In this document: piece after piece, positions 2,180 through 35,656 of the stretch | Layout of the letters: each line of letters begins with the position of its first letter | How positions within the stretch are numbered: position 1 is the stretch's first letter | Source: an uncultured Candidatus Saccharibacteria bacterium | Lineage (GTDB): Bacteria > Patescibacteriota > Saccharimonadia > CAILAD01 > GCA-016700035 | Direction: 5' to 3' | DNA: 64,000 nt | NCBI GenBank assembly: GCA_964583675.1 | Contig: CAZOVH010000002.1 | Coordinates: 2,602 to 66,601 of the forward strand | Notes under the pieces: generated by a model | Seen by the model: only the letters and a program-made list of their open reading frames with translations | The model's database searches: none | What the model was told of the DNA's origin: nothing | Program-made: the position numbers and the translations under genes

Positions 2180-2198
2180 ATACCGATCGGATCGGTAT
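2180..2198. promoter_or_regulatory. perfect 19-bp palindrome ATACCGATC-G-GATCGGTAT between divergent genes (putative operator)
   Basis: Read directly; centred in the 128-bp divergent intergenic region. Confidence 0.5.
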
Positions 2199-2286
2199 CT
2201 ACCTCTGCCGTGTGCAAAGATAAGTGTTATTATAGCACTATTATAGATTTATGTCAATCATTATATAATTGCCAAATCTATATTTT

Positions 2287-2701
2287 TATGATTAAATATG
2301 CAGTATTCAATCTCGACAGACGGAGAAGCACCTTGTACGCGATGCATGATGAAGTCGAACTCTTGGTGGTGGTGATGGATTCCACGGCACCGGAAGAGAT
2401 GGTCGAAAAGATGCTCTGTGAATTCAGGTTCGTTCGAAAAATCGACATCACAAAGATCCTGGAGAAAGTCGAGAAGAAGCTCCTTCCGCAACTTGAGCGG
2501 GGGAGAGTTGGCCTCCTAACCCAGATTCAACTCAGCATCGCCATGAGGAAGGCAGTGCACCAGACGACCGGCTTCATACAGGACGTTGGCGAGAAAACAC
2601 GCGTAATCGTCATTGCGCCGCCCTACATCGACCGAATGAGTCTTGGGGTGAACCTCACAATGACGTGCAAGAAACACATAACGGTGATTGGCAAGAGCTA
2701 A
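2287..2701 (+). CDS. hypothetical protein (138 aa) divergent from 1832..2158
   Basis: ATG at 2287 after AT-rich promoter region; followed by terminator hairpin; no family recognised. Confidence 0.5.
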
Positions 2702-30068: not shown

Positions 30069-31095
30069 TCAGCCCGATAAGCAACCCCAAACAGCCCATA
30101 ATGGCGCCAATCACCCATAAGCGCATAGTTACCTTAGTTTCCGGCCAGCCAATGGCTTCTAGGTGATGATGGAGTGGTGCCGAACGGAATATTTTCCTAC
30201 CCAAAACCTTCTTAGAAAAAATCTGAATGGCACTCGAACCAGCCTCGAGCACAAATATCATCCCAATGATTGGCAATACAAACACCGAATCGGTTAGCAT
30301 CGCAATCACACCAAGCATCGCCCCGAGTGCCGTTGATCCGACCTGCCCCATAAAGAAGCGGGCAGGATAAATATTAAACCAAGTATAGGCCAAGACAGCG
30401 CCGACTACAGTCGCACAGAAGGCCGCCAGAGCGTAAAGCCCTGAGAAAAATGCAATGATAGCATACGAGCCGTAAGCGATTGAAAGAAGGCCGCCAGCTA
30501 GACCATCTAAGCCATCTGTAATTGAGACCGATTTTGCGGTTGAAAAGACAACTACCACAAATAACGGAACATACAGCCAGCCAATTGAAAAATCACCAAC
30601 GGCTGGAACATGCAAAATATCATAGCCTAACTTCACATAAAACCACCAGGCACACATCAGCGACAAAATAATCAGAGCCAAAGCCTGAGTCCGCGCCTTT
30701 AATCCGCCACTTCTGTTGGCAAAGCCAAGGATGTTCGAGAGGTCATCGACTAGCCCGAGCGCACCAAATAATGCCAATGAGGCGAGCGGCAACCAAGTCT
30801 CTGCACGATTCATATTCGCTGCGAGTGTAATAATAGCGACTGCGATGAGCACAATCGAGCCAGCCATAGTTGGGATATTACGCTTATGTTTTTCGGCATG
30901 GAGCTTAGCGAAAACTTTGGCTTTTTCCCCGGTCACTGTTTCGGTTCGCTGCTTTCGCCACCATTTATAACGAAATGCCAGGGTTGTAAAAATTGGTGTT
31001 GCTACCATAGCCAGTACAAAGCCGGCAAACGCGAAGCCGAGCACCGGTAAAAGAAGATTGGTCATTGAATCAAACTGCATAAGGTTACCTTTCAA
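30055..31095 (-). CDS. mraY: phospho-N-acetylmuramoyl-pentapeptide-transferase
   Basis: Multi-TM; DDLSNILGF and GLDGLAGG motifs; alternative starts at 31080/31065. Confidence 0.85.
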   Translation of the reverse strand: MKGNLMQFDSMTNLLLPVLGFAFAGFVLAMVATPIFTTLAFRYKWWRKQRTETVTGEKAKVFAKLHAEKHKRNIPTMAGSIVLIAVAIITLAANMNRAETWLPLASLALFGALGLVDDLSNILGFANRSGGLKARTQALALIILSLMCAWWFYVKLGYDILHVPAVGDFSIGWLYVPLFVVVVFSTAKSVSITDGLDGLAGGLLSIAYGSYAIIAFFSGLYALAAFCATVVGAVLAYTWFNIYPARFFMGQVGSTALGAMLGVIAMLTDSVFVLPIIGMIFVLEAGSSAIQIFSKKVLGRKIFRSAPLHHHLEAIGWPETKVTMRLWVIGAIMGCLGLLIGLIARG

Positions 31096-31110
31096 GCGTC
31101 CATTATATCA

Positions 31111-32841
31111 CTAGCTCCCCGCCGGAGGCACCTGATAATAACTAAACAGCTGCTTTGCAATCTCAGCAAACGCCGGCACAGCACTACGTTCGGCGTACGT
31201 ATTGGTCTGCGGATAATCAACCCTCACCAGCATAATAAACTTGGGATCCCCTACAGGTGCAAAGCCGATAAACGTACCAATATTCTTGTTTTCTTCATAC
31301 CCTTGACCGTTTGCTTTCGGCACCTGGGCCGTTCCTGTTTTTCCGGCAATCTTATAGCCTGGCATGCGCGTTAAATAGCCCGAACCACCTTCCACTACAC
31401 CGATCATCATATTGGCCACCGTATCGGCGGTCTCTTCGCTCATAATTCTCTCGGTAGAAGGGCCCTTCCTCACCGCCTCGAGCTCACCATTTGGCAAAAC
31501 TTTTTTTGCCAGGACGTGAGGCTCAACTTTTGTACCACCATTCGCTATTGAGGCCACCGCAGTAATCATCTGTAAGCTGGTTGTAGCGATACCTTGGCCA
31601 AACGTCATGTTGGCGTAATCAATGTCTGCAGCCTTGGTATCTTTTACTTTGCCTGCCGCTTCACCCGCGAGTTCCACGCCAGTTTTTTGTCCAAAACCAA
31701 ATTTCTGGATACCGGCGTAAAGCATCTCTTTGCCGGCCTTTGTAATTTCGTTTGGATTCCCACCCATTAGTTTCAATATGTACACCATGCCAGTATTAAT
31801 GGAGTTTTTTATGACCAACGACATATCAACCTGCCCAAACTTTTTCTTGTCGGCATTATGAATAGTGTATTCACCAATCACCACTTCGCCCGTATCGTTA
31901 AAGCCGGTATTTGCCTCAACCTTGTCATTTTCTATACCAATCGACATGGTGAGCGGCTTGAAACCTGAACCTGGTTCAAATTGACTCGAAACCGCGCTAT
32001 TAATAAAGCTTGCATAATTCTCCGGCTTCACCTGAGCATAGTTATTCGGATCATAGTCTGGTGTGTTCACTAATGCCTTAATCGCACCAGTGTAAGGGTC
32101 CATTACAATCACACTACCACTGGCCGCCTTATTGTCGTCTACAGCTTTCTTGAGCGCTTTTTCGGCGATACCCTGAATGTAGCGGTCTACAGTTAGTACG
32201 TACGAGGTGCCGTTGCGCGGCTCCTCGATAATATTATCTTGTGTCGAGAGCGGCACGCCCTGACTATCTGTAATCGCCTTAAGCTGCCCGTTGCGGCCGG
32301 AAAGATCTGCATTAAGGTATTCCTCAAGGCCGTATTGCCCCCTACCATCACTGTTTACGTACCCAGTCAGGTGACCAAACAATGCCCCCTCTGGATAGGC
32401 CCGGTAATCACGATCACTCAACACTACTCCCCTAATTTTCGCTTCGATGATTCTTTTTGCGAGGTCTTTATCTATTTGCTGCTTGAGTTCAACATAGCGA
32501 TTCTTGCCAGTATACGTAAGTTTTTTTTCAAGATCAGTTTGATTTGCCCCCAAAAGAGGTGCCAGCTTTTCAGCGGCCTCCTTCGGATTCTCAATAAGCT
32601 GGGGATCTGCGTACATGTACTTTAGGGAGTTGTTTAACGCTACCGGATATAGTTCACCATTCTCTTCAACATACAGCTCACCCCGACTAGCTGGTATTTC
32701 AAATTGTCGAGATTGCTGAGCCGAGGCTTTTTCGGCATAAAAATTGTGCTTAAAAATCTGTACCGTCACCAAACGGCCAAAGATGATAATTGCTGGCAAC
32801 AAAAATACTCCGGCTAAGACATAGAGCCGGATATTGCTCAT
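31111..32841 (-). CDS. ftsI: penicillin-binding protein 2/3 (FtsI-type transpeptidase)
   Basis: N-terminal TM, dimerisation domain, SxxK (SGFK), SxN (SINTG), KTG (KTGTA). Confidence 0.85.
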   Translation of the reverse strand: MSNIRLYVLAGVFLLPAIIIFGRLVTVQIFKHNFYAEKASAQQSRQFEIPASRGELYVEENGELYPVALNNSLKYMYADPQLIENPKEAAEKLAPLLGANQTDLEKKLTYTGKNRYVELKQQIDKDLAKRIIEAKIRGVVLSDRDYRAYPEGALFGHLTGYVNSDGRGQYGLEEYLNADLSGRNGQLKAITDSQGVPLSTQDNIIEEPRNGTSYVLTVDRYIQGIAEKALKKAVDDNKAASGSVIVMDPYTGAIKALVNTPDYDPNNYAQVKPENYASFINSAVSSQFEPGSGFKPLTMSIGIENDKVEANTGFNDTGEVVIGEYTIHNADKKKFGQVDMSLVIKNSINTGMVYILKLMGGNPNEITKAGKEMLYAGIQKFGFGQKTGVELAGEAAGKVKDTKAADIDYANMTFGQGIATTSLQMITAVASIANGGTKVEPHVLAKKVLPNGELEAVRKGPSTERIMSEETADTVANMMIGVVEGGSGYLTRMPGYKIAGKTGTAQVPKANGQGYEENKNIGTFIGFAPVGDPKFIMLVRVDYPQTNTYAERSAVPAFAEIAKQLFSYYQVPPAGS

Positions 32842-32915: not shown

Positions 32916-33239
32916 CTAACGCTGTGCGTAACTTACATTTTGCACTGGTGTCATGGCTTGTGCAACCTGTGAGTTACGTGCCTCAGCAATAGACTGTAAA
33001 CGAGCGGCATCAATACGGAGCTGCTCCTTCTCTGCCTGAAGAGAATTTCGCTTCGCTTCCAGGGTAGAAAGACGATAATTAAGAGTCGAAGATTTAGATA
33101 CTTGATTGAGATACAAAAGTGAGAGCAGCACCACAAGTGCAATCAACATAAATGAAACAGATATCGGTCCAGCCTGCACACGAGCTTCAACGCGAGTAAG
33201 ATTTTGATTGCGCACTAATCGAGAAGTACTTGGGTACAT
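32916..33239 (-). CDS. ftsL: cell division protein FtsL-like (single TM + coiled coil)
   Basis: TM ISVSFMLIALVVLLSLLYL then heptad-rich segment; position between rsmH and ftsI. Confidence 0.6.
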   Translation of the reverse strand: MYPSTSRLVRNQNLTRVEARVQAGPISVSFMLIALVVLLSLLYLNQVSKSSTLNYRLSTLEAKRNSLQAEKEQLRIDAARLQSIAEARNSQVAQAMTPVQNVSYAQR

Positions 33240-33409
33240 GTAGTCTCCTTTTTGTATTTTTGGTGTGTTTTTGTGTTTGTTTTTTAGAATACAGTGAATC
33301 AGGGCTGTTACACCCTGATTGCAATTATTTGATTACGCGAACCTTGAGTCGGGTAGCGCGTGGGCTCATATTTCGTACTGATACGGTCATAAGACCTCCT
33401 TTTTTTGTG

Positions 33410-34318
33410 TTATTTTTTCTTTTCGACGGCTCGGAGCTTTGCACTCCGGGCGCGTGGATTGTAATCAATCTCATTGGGTGCCGCAGTGAGCGGCTTTTTG
33501 GTAACCAAGCTAAACTGTGATTCCTGTAATGCTTGTCCTGTAATAGTATCGCATATATCACGCGTAATGTCACGCATTTTTCGCTTAATTATGCGATCTT
33601 CTAGCGAGTGAAAGCTAACTACTGCCAATCTCCCGCCCGGGGCTAAGGCCTCCAATGCAGCATCGAGCATCGCATCGATTACTTCTAGTTCGCGATTGAC
33701 GGAAATTCGCAGGGCTTGGAAGGTGCGGGTAGCAGGATCAATCCGATGGTAACCCTTGGGATACTGAGCTCTTACAATGTCAGCTAACTGCAGTGTTGTT
33801 TGGATTGATTGAGTCGCCCGCGTCTGAACAATTGCCCGTGCAATGTGGCGAGAGCGCTTCTCTTCTCCATAACGCCAGAGCAGATCGGCGATATCTCGCT
33901 CATCTAGCTCAGCAAGTAATTCTGCAGCTGTCTGCCCTTTGGTTTGATCCATGCGCATATCCAGCGGAGCATCTTGTTGAAACGAGAAACCCCGTTCGCT
34001 GTCATCTAGTTGCGCACTACTCACACCAAGATCGGCCAAAACCATATTTGGACTCGGAATACTCTTCCAGTCAATGTCCGCAAAGTTTGAGCGGTATACA
34101 TGGACACGAGCATCACCTTTGAAGCTATTATGGAGTGCTTGGAGAGCTACTTGATCTTGGTCCACAAGATAGGCCTGCCCTTTCGGGCCAAGCTTATCAA
34201 GCACCAAACTAGCGTGCCCACCGAATCCCGCCGTTAAATCAACGTAGGTATCGCTTTCAGTCGGTTTCAGTACTTCCAAGACTTCTTGCTGCAATACAGG
34301 AATGTGTCGCTGTGTCAT
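33410..34318 (-). CDS. rsmH: 16S rRNA (cytosine1402-N4)-methyltransferase
   Basis: HIPVLQQEVLE...YVDLTAGFGGHA SAM-binding signature. Confidence 0.9.
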   Translation of the reverse strand: MTQRHIPVLQQEVLEVLKPTESDTYVDLTAGFGGHASLVLDKLGPKGQAYLVDQDQVALQALHNSFKGDARVHVYRSNFADIDWKSIPSPNMVLADLGVSSAQLDDSERGFSFQQDAPLDMRMDQTKGQTAAELLAELDERDIADLLWRYGEEKRSRHIARAIVQTRATQSIQTTLQLADIVRAQYPKGYHRIDPATRTFQALRISVNRELEVIDAMLDAALEALAPGGRLAVVSFHSLEDRIIKRKMRDITRDICDTITGQALQESQFSLVTKKPLTAAPNEIDYNPRARSAKLRAVEKKK

Positions 34319-34633
34319 GATGTCAAGGTTACCTATTTAGCAGCCAACTGTCTATATGTGTTTTTATTTTTGAAAGTTGTGAGGTGTGTTCCACTAATTT
34401 AGTGGATGTGGCAAGGACCAGTCATGTGATTAGTCCTTGTTTTGAACTGTATGTTCAAAGAGTTGAAAGTTTGTGAGGTGGAGTTTTTGAAAAACAAGAA
34501 TGTACATGTCTCTATTTGGATACGCCGAGACGACTGAAAGCGCCGTTGACTGCCAAATAGCTAACCTGATTTTTATTTTTATGTCTATTTCAAAGTTCTG
34601 ATTTGAATTGTCTCAAATCCCCTCATCTAGATG

Positions 34634-35008
34634 CTACTTAGCCGTAATGCGAAAGTAGCGACCAGCGCGGACAGCGACAATATCGCGACCTATGCCGGCA
34701 TAAGCCAGATGATGGGGTTCGAGAGTAATGCGGCCTTGCTTAGAATCAAGCTTGGCTTCTACTCGACCAGTACGGAATTTTACATTGAGATCGGCAATTC
34801 TCTCATCGAGAATGTCACCGCGCAATGCTTGCTCCATTTCCTGATCCCAAATCTTTTTTGGATACACGTGAAGGTACTGACCAAAGCCCCGGGTTATTAC
34901 CACTTCCCCGCCAAACTCTTCGTGTAAAGCTGTCGGGATTGTGAGTCGGTTCTTGGTGTCAAGGCGTCGTTCGAAGTAATCCATGGGTCCCATTGTGCTC
35001 CTCGTCAT
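34634..35008 (-). CDS. mraZ: transcriptional regulator MraZ
   Basis: Two DxxxR-like modules (LDTKNRLTIP, LDSKQGRITL); start ambiguous (ATGs at 35008, 34993, 34984). Confidence 0.8.
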   Translation of the reverse strand: MTRSTMGPMDYFERRLDTKNRLTIPTALHEEFGGEVVITRGFGQYLHVYPKKIWDQEMEQALRGDILDERIADLNVKFRTGRVEAKLDSKQGRITLEPHHLAYAGIGRDIVAVRAGRYFRITAK

Positions 35009-35035
35009 TTGCGTTGTGTGAAGCAGTATCACACT

Positions 35036-35078
35036 TACCCACTACCATAACTATATTACCCACAAATACCCACGTCAA
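35036..35078 (-). promoter_or_regulatory. mraZ promoter (TTGACG -17- TATAGT) overlapped by three direct GTGGGTA MraZ-box repeats
   Basis: Minus strand reads TTGACGTGGGTATTTGTGGGTAATATAGTT...GTAGTGGGTAAG; repeat spacing 10 and 21 nt. Confidence 0.6.
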
Positions 35079-35140
35079 CACATTTACATAAGTTTTTTGG
35101 TGTTATCCACAAGAATATGTAATACTAGAGCGTAACAACC

Positions 35141-35656
35141 ATGCCTCGACACAAAAAACACCGTGCAAAACAGAAAATTAGATCAAATTACATACGATCA
35201 AGTTTTTTTGGTATCGAAGACAGCCTGGTCTCCACCACAGGCCTCATTGCCGGGATCTCAGTAGGTACCCAGGAAGTTCGGTTCATCTTGCTAGCTGGAT
35301 TCGTGGCTGTGGCAGTTGAGGCAATCTCGATGGCCGCCGGAGAATTTTTATCTGAAGAGACTGAGCAAGATTTAAACAGATCAAAACAACACTCCAACCC
35401 GATAATTGGTGGTGCGATTATGTTTGTGTCCTATTTTGCAGCCGGCATGATCCCAATATTACCGATTCTATTCTTCCCCATAAATTACGCTATATACGTT
35501 TCGATGGCAGCAGCGCTCGTGGGCCTTTTCCTATTAGGCCTCATGAAAGGTGCTCTAACAAAACGCAATATACTTAAAAGCGGTATACAAGTACTGGTAG
35601 TTGGTGGAACTGCCGCGCTCATTGGGGCAGCGGTTGGTATCTTCTTTAAAGTTTAG
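35141..35656 (+). CDS. VIT1/CCC1 family (iron/manganese transporter-like) membrane protein
   Basis: FFGIEDSLVSTTGLIAGISVG and SMAAGEFLSEETE motifs typical of VIT family; short version. Confidence 0.55.
   Translation: MPRHKKHRAKQKIRSNYIRSSFFGIEDSLVSTTGLIAGISVGTQEVRFILLAGFVAVAVEAISMAAGEFLSEETEQDLNRSKQHSNPIIGGAIMFVSYFAAGMIPILPILFFPINYAIYVSMAAALVGLFLLGLMKGALTKRNILKSGIQVLVVGGTAALIGAAVGIFFKV

Follow-up and report, generated by a model that had tools for sequence, protein, structure and literature searches.

In a 64,000-nucleotide (nt) stretch of DNA from an uncultured Candidatus Saccharibacteria bacterium (contig CAZOVH010000002.1; hereafter, the window), we examined the spacer between mraZ and rsmH, two minus-strand genes of the dcw cluster. 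The downstream gene, encoding the 16S rRNA m4C1402 methyltransferase RsmH, matched TIGR00006 with 313.9 bits (cutoff 154). The upstream gene gave a weak match to TIGR00242 (42 bits versus a cutoff of 98), and PF02381 is annotated on its orthologues; the true start of this gene is probably the ATG of MDYFERRL, at ~34984. The spacer that the initial annotation had reported between the two genes was present and measured 315 nt (34319-34633) rather than 316. All of the sequence features described there were found again. The direct repeat, TTGAAAGTTGTGAGGTG at 34370-34386 and TTGAAAGTTTGTGAGGTG at 34463-34480 (plus strand), consists of exact 9-mer and 10-mer blocks with a 1-nt indel between them, and the palindromes CCACTAA-T-TTAGTGG (34390-34406) and GTTTTT-G-AAAAAC (34483-34495) and the hairpins CAAGGAC...GTCCTTG (34412-34439) and TTGAAC-tgtat-GTTCAA (34441-34459) correspond to helices P7, P4, P6 and P5, respectively, of the RNA described below. 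Three further features came to light: a long-range helix of 22 pairs (P1), which is the strongest feature of the spacer, a pseudoknot of the H type and, close behind the mraZ stop codon, a hairpin (P0). Conservation and covariation strongly support the earlier proposal of a functional structured RNA on the minus-strand operon transcript: the spacer is almost certainly a selected, folded and functional RNA of that strand, and it is an uncatalogued structured RNA family of Saccharibacteria.

Copies of the element were taken from four GTDB genomes, then from a metagenome scan, and then from the loci of RsmH homologues, and 19 distinct lineages carrying it were recovered, with RsmH identities of 47 to 91%. 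For the four GTDB genomes, RsmH proteins that were 91, 88, 78 and 77% identical were accompanied by spacers with 95, 97, 92 and 90% nucleotide identity. Scanning metagenomes with an 18-mer of repeat copy 1 yielded more divergent copies (loci L087, L094, L096, L101 and L102), and when Saccharibacteria loci were fetched through the RsmH protein (74% to 47% identity), with no DNA pattern used, every spacer was 270 to 400 nt long and contained the same blocks. The spacer was kept in relatives and exceeded its flanking genes in conservation, clearly contrary to the absence or lack of conservation by which the initial annotation would have been refuted: its nucleotide identity in L003, L103 and L104 was 90, 92 and 89%, versus 82% for mraZ in all three and 75, 77 and 73% for rsmH, and the noncoding stretch after rsmH was 72, 50 and 52% identical in the same loci.

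The element lies directly 5′ of rsmH in 19/19 lineages. One of these lineages, represented by L102, L105 and L106, has no mraZ, and a promoter region with GTGGG boxes is followed there by the element and then by rsmH. This indicated that the element goes with rsmH and not with mraZ. The rsmH gene of this lineage begins with GUG immediately past GGAGG. Two covariance models, R1 for the 3′ half and R2 for the 5′ half, were built from the seven closest sequences and used to align all 19 copies; they gave no match beyond the 19 lineages, and the conserved blocks were absent from loci of other Patescibacteria and of other phyla fetched with RsmH. All carriers of the element are metagenome-assembled genomes (MAGs) of Candidatus Saccharibacteria/Patescibacteria, and the RNA family has so far been seen only in Candidatus Saccharibacteria.

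Minus-strand folding, a check that the initial annotation had proposed, gave a structure of -81.7 kcal/mol (z = -6.25) that none of 100 shuffles equalled in stability; the plus strand folded with z = -3.8. As summarized in Table 1, the RNA is ~300 nt long. Its P1 arms form a 23-nt inverted repeat enclosing all other spacer features, with 22 of the 23 positions paired and one G-G mismatch, and such a match was obtained in none of 100 shuffles of the window; the enclosed domain is ~200 nt. The sense RNA holds two copies of CACCUCACAA(A)CUUUCAA. The 5′ linker was A-rich throughout relatives but variable in length, and the 3′ linker was CAAAAA-rich in all lineages.

Table 1. Features of the mraZ-rsmH spacer RNA and its surroundings (window coordinates unless a locus is named).
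Feature	Position	Strand	Remarks
Promoter-like TTGACG-17-TATAGT and three GTGGGTA boxes	35035-35078	-	upstream of mraZ; promoter 10/12 matches
mraZ	34634-34999	-	directly upstream of element
P0 hairpin GAUUUGAG-ACAA-UUCAAAUC	34600-34619	-	begins 14 nt past mraZ stop codon
5′ A-rich single-stranded linker AGAACUUUGAAAUAGACAUAAAAAUAAAAAUC	34568-34599	-	unpaired in minimum free energy and centroid folds
P1 5′ strand AGGUUAGCUAUUUGGCAGUCAAC	34545-34567	-	long-range closing helix; inverted repeat
H-type pseudoknot	34508-34543	-	stems S1 and S2; loop 3 = AUCCAAAUA
Pseudoknot S1	GCGCU 34539-34543 with GGCGU 34522-34526	-	
Pseudoknot S2	GUCUC 34527-34531 with GAGAC 34508-34512	-	
Single-stranded AUGUACAUU (RGUAC core)	34499-34507	-	3′ of pseudoknot; kept in type 1 and type 2 lineages
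P4 small AU hairpin GUUUUU-C-AAAAAC	34483-34495	-	variable, optional
Invariant single-stranded motif AAAACUCCACCUCACAAAC(UUUCAAC)	34462-34487	-	direct-repeat copy 1; unpaired in folds
P5 hairpin UUUGAAC-AUACA-GUUCAAA	34441-34459	-	
P6 hairpin CAAGGACU...GGUCCUUG	34412-34439	-	base sequence-conserved, tip variable
CCACA after P6	34407-34411	-	invariant
P7 hairpin UCCACUA-AAU-UAGUGGA	34390-34406	-	
Second motif copy ACACCUCACAACUUUCAA	34370-34387	-	direct repeats
3′ A-rich single-stranded linker AAAAUAAAAACACAUAUAGACA	34349-34370	-	unpaired in folds
P1 3′ strand GUUGGCUGCUAAAUAGGUAACCU	34326-34348	-	inverted repeat; includes Shine-Dalgarno-like AGGU
UGACAUC + AUG start codon of rsmH	34316-34325	-	7 nt between last P1 pair and start codon
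rsmH	33410-34318	-	directly downstream of element
21-codon open reading frame MTVSVRNMSPRATRLKVRVIK	33325-33390	-	inside 170-nt rsmH-ftsL gap (33240-33409)
Hairpin AAUCAGGG...CCCUGAUU	~33283-33310	-	directly past the 21-codon frame
ftsL-like gene	32916-33239	-	FtsL model match weak
ftsI	31111-32841	-	dcw genes
TATAAT hexamer	~31095-31105	-	at ftsI end, before mraY
mraZ-less loci	L102 4538-4988; L105 and L106 1975-2500		
Type 2 elements	L111, L112, L113, L119; spacers ~2190-2500		without P5 and second CCACCUCAC; pseudoknot of different sequence

A 23-nt terminal inverted repeat around ~196 nt is also what a miniature inverted-repeat transposable element (MITE) or another selfish insertion could leave, short open reading frames (ORFs) of 30 to 38 codons occur on both strands, and palindromes may arise by chance in AT-rich DNA. 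Taken together, these explanations are extremely improbable. The element is present as one copy in the 64 kb, with no second P1 arm or domain, it occupies the same syntenic site in 19 lineages whose RsmH identities span 47-91%, and its invariant 23-mer had no match in viral contigs. A small protein gene was likewise rejected: 1-nt indels occurred among 90-97% identical relatives inside a 32-codon minus-strand ORF (34399-34497), and indels of this kind in close relatives break every short ORF, indicating that the spacer is not coding. The z value of -6.25, together with conservation above the coding level, ruled out chance.

The covariation check on homologous spacers, also proposed earlier, revealed six helices with compensatory changes, and none of 500 shuffles reached the observed values. 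In the 3′ half (P5, P6 and P7), 92.1% of cells were paired and 16 of the 25 pairs changed on both sides; the covariation score was 0.257, versus 0.014-0.035 with partners slid by 1-3 columns, and 0/500 shuffles reached any of five measures. Compensatory changes were found at 7/7 pairs of P5 and at 7/7 pairs of P7, the sequences of the latter being wholly different between lineages, while P6 was paired in 94.6% of cells, with an invariant base and covarying tip pairs, and was predicted in every lineage folded. The hairpins formed by the palindromes of the initial annotation were kept across the 19 lineages with differing sequences. P4 was 76% paired with zero compensatory changes and is not supported as a universal helix; L102/L105, L087/L094 and L117 have it with other sequences, and further lineages lack it.

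The 5′ half, including the pseudoknot, was paired in 92.2% of cells, and 12 of its 22 pairs were compensatory (0/500 shuffles). P0 showed compensatory changes at 6/8 pairs with 92.9% of cells paired over the 19 lineages, pseudoknot stem S2 showed them at 5/5 pairs, and S1 was 98.8% paired, with a closing pair of UG, CG, UA or GC. The same pseudoknot topology was found with unrelated stem sequences in L111, L112, L113 and L119 (in L113, UCGCG..CUUGG..CGCGA..CCAAG). Among the 22 pairs of P1, 17 were invariant, 3 compensatory (U-A to C-G in L112, and A-U/G-U/G-C and C-G/U-A at the inner end) and 2 were invariant G-U pairs. Since the latter would be A-C mismatches on the opposite strand, the functional strand is the sense strand of the operon.

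The universal core comprises both P1 strands, AAAACUCCACCUCACAAAC, the P6 base with CCACA, and a pseudoknot of conserved topology. The 19-nt AAAACUCCACCUCACAAAC was identical in 18/19 lineages, and L110 (UCAAACUCC...) differed in the leading A run, while CUCCACCUCACAAAC was identical in 19/19, including the loci fetched through the RsmH protein. In the P1 3′ strand, which is invariant (GUUGGCUGCUAAAUAGGUAACCU) together with the following UG, UGGCUGCU(A/G)AAUAGGUAACCUUG was otherwise identical in 19/19 lineages; CCUUG is invariant as well. As a feature of the family, the direct repeat held only in part: its first copy is universal, whereas the second, conserved as CCACCUCAC or ACACCUCAC in type 1 lineages, is missing from the four divergent lineages L111, L112, L113 and L119. 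P5 is absent from the same four, which we designated type 2. The family thus has at least two structural subtypes.

Two alternative pairings involving the pseudoknot region and the core motif were rejected. A hairpin P2 (ACGGC/GUCGU) that would replace S1 is available in the window, L001 and L004 but not in L003, and it overlaps S1 and S2 in other lineages; the pseudoknot is preferred because its topology outlasts the complete sequence turnover in type 2. Pairing of CUCCACCUCAC with the conserved (G)UGAGGGGA located 5′ of P0 was the best duplex in ~11/15 type 1 sequences (-11 to -15 kcal/mol), but L104, L102/L105 and L087 carry uncompensated disruptions of this duplex, and type 2 lineages have a different partner.

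To place the element in a transcript, promoter- and terminator-like sites were considered. A strong promoter-like sequence precedes mraZ (Table 1) and is followed by three GTGGGTA boxes at spacings of 10 and 21 nt, which we take to resemble the MraZ operator repeats of other bacteria. No promoter-like site was found on the sense strand within 34319-34633, and no terminator-like site on either strand. Thus, the structured element is probably part of the operon mRNA. An attenuator, one of the roles first suggested, fails in the terminator sense: a GC-rich hairpin with a U tract was not found on the sense strand of the spacer, nor a hairpin with a T run on either strand. The other two suggested roles, a processing site and an intra-operon sRNA, are both compatible with the sequence.

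These data also bear on whether the conserved unit is DNA, that is, an internal promoter and/or operator sites for rsmH, with the repeats serving as sites for a protein that binds DNA, MraZ for example. MraZ represses by binding to repeats, and the repeats and both P1 arms are conserved in sequence beyond what pairing demands; yet base pairing in six helices persists through complete sequence turnover, the invariant G-U pairs are specific to one strand, and the MraZ-type GTGGGTA boxes lie upstream of mraZ, with none in the spacer. An internal promoter in an A-rich linker was rejected, as the linkers vary in length and offer no acceptable or fixed -35/-10 geometry, and the spacer lacks a sense-strand promoter-like site altogether. 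We therefore regard a DNA-level role as very unlikely.

Next, known RNA families were compared with the element. At the gathering score, Rfam 15 detected only four tRNAs in the whole window, all elsewhere; window positions 34100-35200 gave no match at E values up to 10, and eight homologous loci gave none at E values up to 5 save a chance-level one in L112 (E = 1.3). Our literature search found no description of an mraZ-rsmH RNA in Saccharibacteria, and the only TM7-specific motif found there, lysM-TM7, is unrelated to the element (PMC5737381). The mraW motif (RF01746) comes closest. Restricted to Actinomycetales, it is a structured and conserved RNA of what is presumed to be the 5′ untranslated region (UTR) of mraW (= rsmH), and a cis-regulatory candidate without a known effector (PMC2864571). 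Its transcription as an mRNA leader is documented for Corynebacterium glutamicum (PMC3890552, PMC4046766), and its length is ~100 nt (coordinates in PMC3890552). Both RNAs lie 5′ of mraW/rsmH and downstream of mraZ in the dcw cluster, but the Saccharibacteria element is ~300 nt long, with a 22-pair closing helix, a pseudoknot and five hairpins, and cmscan with RF01746 gave no match (E up to 10 in the window and up to 5 in the eight homologous loci). The element is thus a positional analogue of the mraW motif and not a member of it.

What the RNA does was then considered from its sequence and predicted structure. AGGU, the only Shine-Dalgarno (SD)-like sequence, lies within the P1 3′ strand, in the region 7-15 nt before the rsmH start codon, and the distance from the 3′ end of P1 to this codon, counted from the sequences, is 4-12 nt in 18/19 lineages. 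Most likely, the element serves rsmH and the division genes in cis, as a leader or for processing, and action as a cis-regulatory leader of rsmH, to which we assign roughly even chances, ranked first among the readings. Formation of P1 would occlude the ribosome-binding region of rsmH, so that rsmH expression would require P1 to be opened or cut. The element would thereby act in cis on rsmH and, via rsmH, on downstream ftsL-ftsI-mraY, and the translation or stability of that message may also depend on the opening or cutting of P1. Candidates for opening P1 are a protein or small molecule recognizing the invariant core, or RNase III. Cleavage by RNase III would split the transcript into an mraZ and an rsmH message, free the domain inside P1 and remodel the ribosome-binding site of rsmH, leaving P0 as a 3′ protective hairpin on mraZ. 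We infer all three of these components, namely P1 occlusion, RNase III cleavage and the existence of an effector.

A helix of ~22 pairs is a typical RNase III substrate, and P1 has the size of one (a duplex of about two turns, with at least 20 pairs). RNase III processing stems flank 16S and 23S rRNA, and 5′-UTR stems are known whose cleavage alters translation; like P1, such stems are duplexes of about two turns formed by sequences a few hundred nt apart that bracket a folded RNA, but the near-total invariance of both P1 strands exceeds what we understand RNase III to require. A second parallel is the L20 operator of the Escherichia coli rpmI-rplT operon, a long-range translational operator. 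L20-type operators share with the element pairing across a few hundred nt beside the regulated start, a folded domain to which a regulator would bind and a product that acts on the ribosome; the element differs in having a plain 22-pair duplex, no pseudoknot that includes the start site, and an rRNA likeness of only 6-8-nt matches.

Several observations weigh against a regulated leader of this kind. P1 is long (22 pairs) and nearly invariant, while the P1 helices of ligand-controlled riboswitches are usually short, and a conserved alternative pairing that would open P1 was not found. A switch in which the P1 5′ strand would pair instead with loop 3 of the pseudoknot (CUAUUUGG/CCAAAUAG) was rejected as not conserved, the 8-nt match being lost in L107 and in type 2. 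Types 1 and 2 have dissimilar loops in the pseudoknot, which argues against the pseudoknot as a conserved ligand pocket. In L110, ~60 extra nt follow the P1 3′ strand before the annotated start of rsmH is reached (2443-2500), and in L012, a MAG of non-Saccharibacteria Patescibacteria (JTS-AC356) whose spacer has a similar architecture, the long helix is placed ~65 nt upstream of an rsmH equipped with a strong SD of its own. In addition, ~24 of 54 long ORFs in the window lacked a clear SD in a crude scan, and the weak SD of rsmH is therefore not unusual in itself.

Both of these loci have further features of their own. The L110 insert contains an extra hairpin covering AGGU-AUG. In the mraZ-rsmH spacer of L012 (2546-3000; 455 nt, z = -9.8), a long-range helix of 21 pairs (GACAGGUAGAUAGCAAUCAGC / GGCUGACUGCUAUCUACCUGUC) encloses four hairpins as well as AUCCACCU, which is single-stranded. 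Even with filters off, this spacer gave no significant match to models R1 and R2, and its relation to the element is therefore one of analogy or of very distant kinship.

Control by a metabolite was weighed as a separate reading, in which the pseudoknot and junction would be an aptamer, e.g. for S-adenosylmethionine (SAM), S-adenosylhomocysteine (SAH) or a peptidoglycan precursor and P1 the expression platform sequestering the ribosome-binding site (RBS). SAM is the cofactor of RsmH, and SAH is its product. The element shows the generic marks of an aptamer (covarying stems, invariant unpaired nucleotides and a position 5′ of the gene), along with a multi-helix junction and an H-type pseudoknot with an A-rich loop 3. 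In the pseudoknot, the A-rich third loop and the location in a 5′ leader it resembles SAM-II, SAM-V, SAM/SAH and preQ1-II riboswitches, and the gene product here uses SAM. The absence of a covariance-model match to these classes, or to any Rfam 15 riboswitch family at E values up to 10, speaks against the idea, as do the pseudoknot being one sub-domain of a larger RNA, its loops not being conserved between type 1 and type 2, a P1 whose length and stability far exceed those of helices that typically switch, and the failure to find a conserved alternative fold. In favor of the idea, the mraW motif, analogous in position, is also an orphan among cis-regulatory candidates (PMC2864571). On balance, a metabolite riboswitch appears doubtful.

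The main rival of the cis-acting leader, possible though clearly less probable, is that the domain is excised. RNase III or another nuclease would free a stable trans-acting noncoding RNA of ~200-240 nt at P1, and this would act via the exposed CUCCACCUCAC motif; it could serve as a decoy or sponge for an RNA-binding protein (e.g. a 30S-maturation factor reading the 16S 3′ end) or pair with GGAGGU-type RBSs. Several properties are consistent with this: P1 has a length that fits an RNase III substrate, the most conserved part of the RNA is single-stranded and, in most lineages, present twice, the fold is unusually stable (z = -6.25), and the helix-to-start distance is not kept in L110 and in the L012 analogue. 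The CUCCACCUCAC motif resembles the 16S anti-Shine-Dalgarno CACCUCC and contains the YCAY-type CCAC and UCAC. Processing of a dcw transcript has a precedent in E. coli, where the operon yields stable fragments, including an abundant 173-nt ftsI fragment (decRNA) that was examined for Hfq and ProQ association (PMC6156199), but these ftsI-derived fragments lie in coding sequence and have no sequence or structural likeness to the intercistronic element, in which processing is deduced.

The remaining observations disfavor a trans-acting RNA. In all 19 lineages the element occurs at rsmH and nowhere else, and the 64 kb of the window contain a single copy. A purely trans role would not require its 3′ strand to overlap the ribosome-binding region of rsmH at a near-fixed distance, and some lineages have dispensed with the second copy of the motif. 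Outside the element, the window shows no enrichment of this motif (11 found versus 8.7 expected), and no target or partner was identified. Mimicry of 16S rRNA by AGGUAACC, CACCUC and CCUUG.CACA was retained only as speculation, since the likeness consists of 6-8-nt matches to the E. coli sequence, as expected by chance. We consider it improbable, though worth stating, that an excised scaffold with one or two anti-SD-like CUCCACCUCAC motifs represents a new class of regulatory RNA linking ribosome maturation to cell division in the ultrasmall bacteria of the Candidate Phyla Radiation (CPR). Such a scaffold would titrate a late 30S assembly factor or RsmH, in the latter case as autoregulation by an RNA that imitates the 3′ minor domain of 16S rRNA, or else would base-pair with GGAGGU-type sites, and versions of it may occur in other Patescibacteria (cf. 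the L012 spacer).

Saccharibacteria and other CPR bacteria have genomes of ~1 Mb or less with few recognizable regulators, and we know of almost no regulatory RNAs described in them. The element reported here is under stronger constraint than the neighboring genes and heads rsmH-ftsL-ftsI-mraY, the division and wall-synthesis genes, and it is likely a key growth control point of these obligate epibionts. With 19 lineages, six covarying helices and a pseudoknot, it adds a new family to the large and complex bacterial RNAs whose function is unknown, and together with the orphan mraW motif it suggests that control at the RNA level between mraZ and rsmH arose more than once. Some Saccharibacteria are cultivable and genetically tractable, and direct tests of the hypotheses would be possible if tractable strains carry the element.

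Downstream of rsmH, other features of the operon were noted. The gap between rsmH and ftsL contains a 21-codon ORF, MTVSVRNMSPRATRLKVRVIK, with a strong SD (AAGGAGG), which is kept in 7/7 aligned relatives at nucleotide identities of 95-98% in close and 58-60% in distant ones; it gave no NCBIfam match and may encode a small protein that has escaped annotation or, alternatively, a leader peptide. The hairpin directly past this ORF, AAUCAGGG...CCCUGAUU, is replaced in relatives by other stem sequences at the same site (e.g. GAUCGGAG/CUCCGAUU in L003) and is followed 3′ by a CAAAAA-rich linker and then by the ftsL SD. As a U tract is absent, the hairpin is not an obvious terminator.

In the window, mraY is preceded by AGGUAACCUU, which was not conserved in relatives and was dismissed as a coincidence. 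A TATAAT hexamer lies at the end of ftsI, 8-30 nt before the mraY start, in the window and in L103, L104, L105, L107 and L117, with a TG one base upstream of it in the window and in three relatives (TGNTATAAT); the sequence suggests an internal promoter for mraY at this position.

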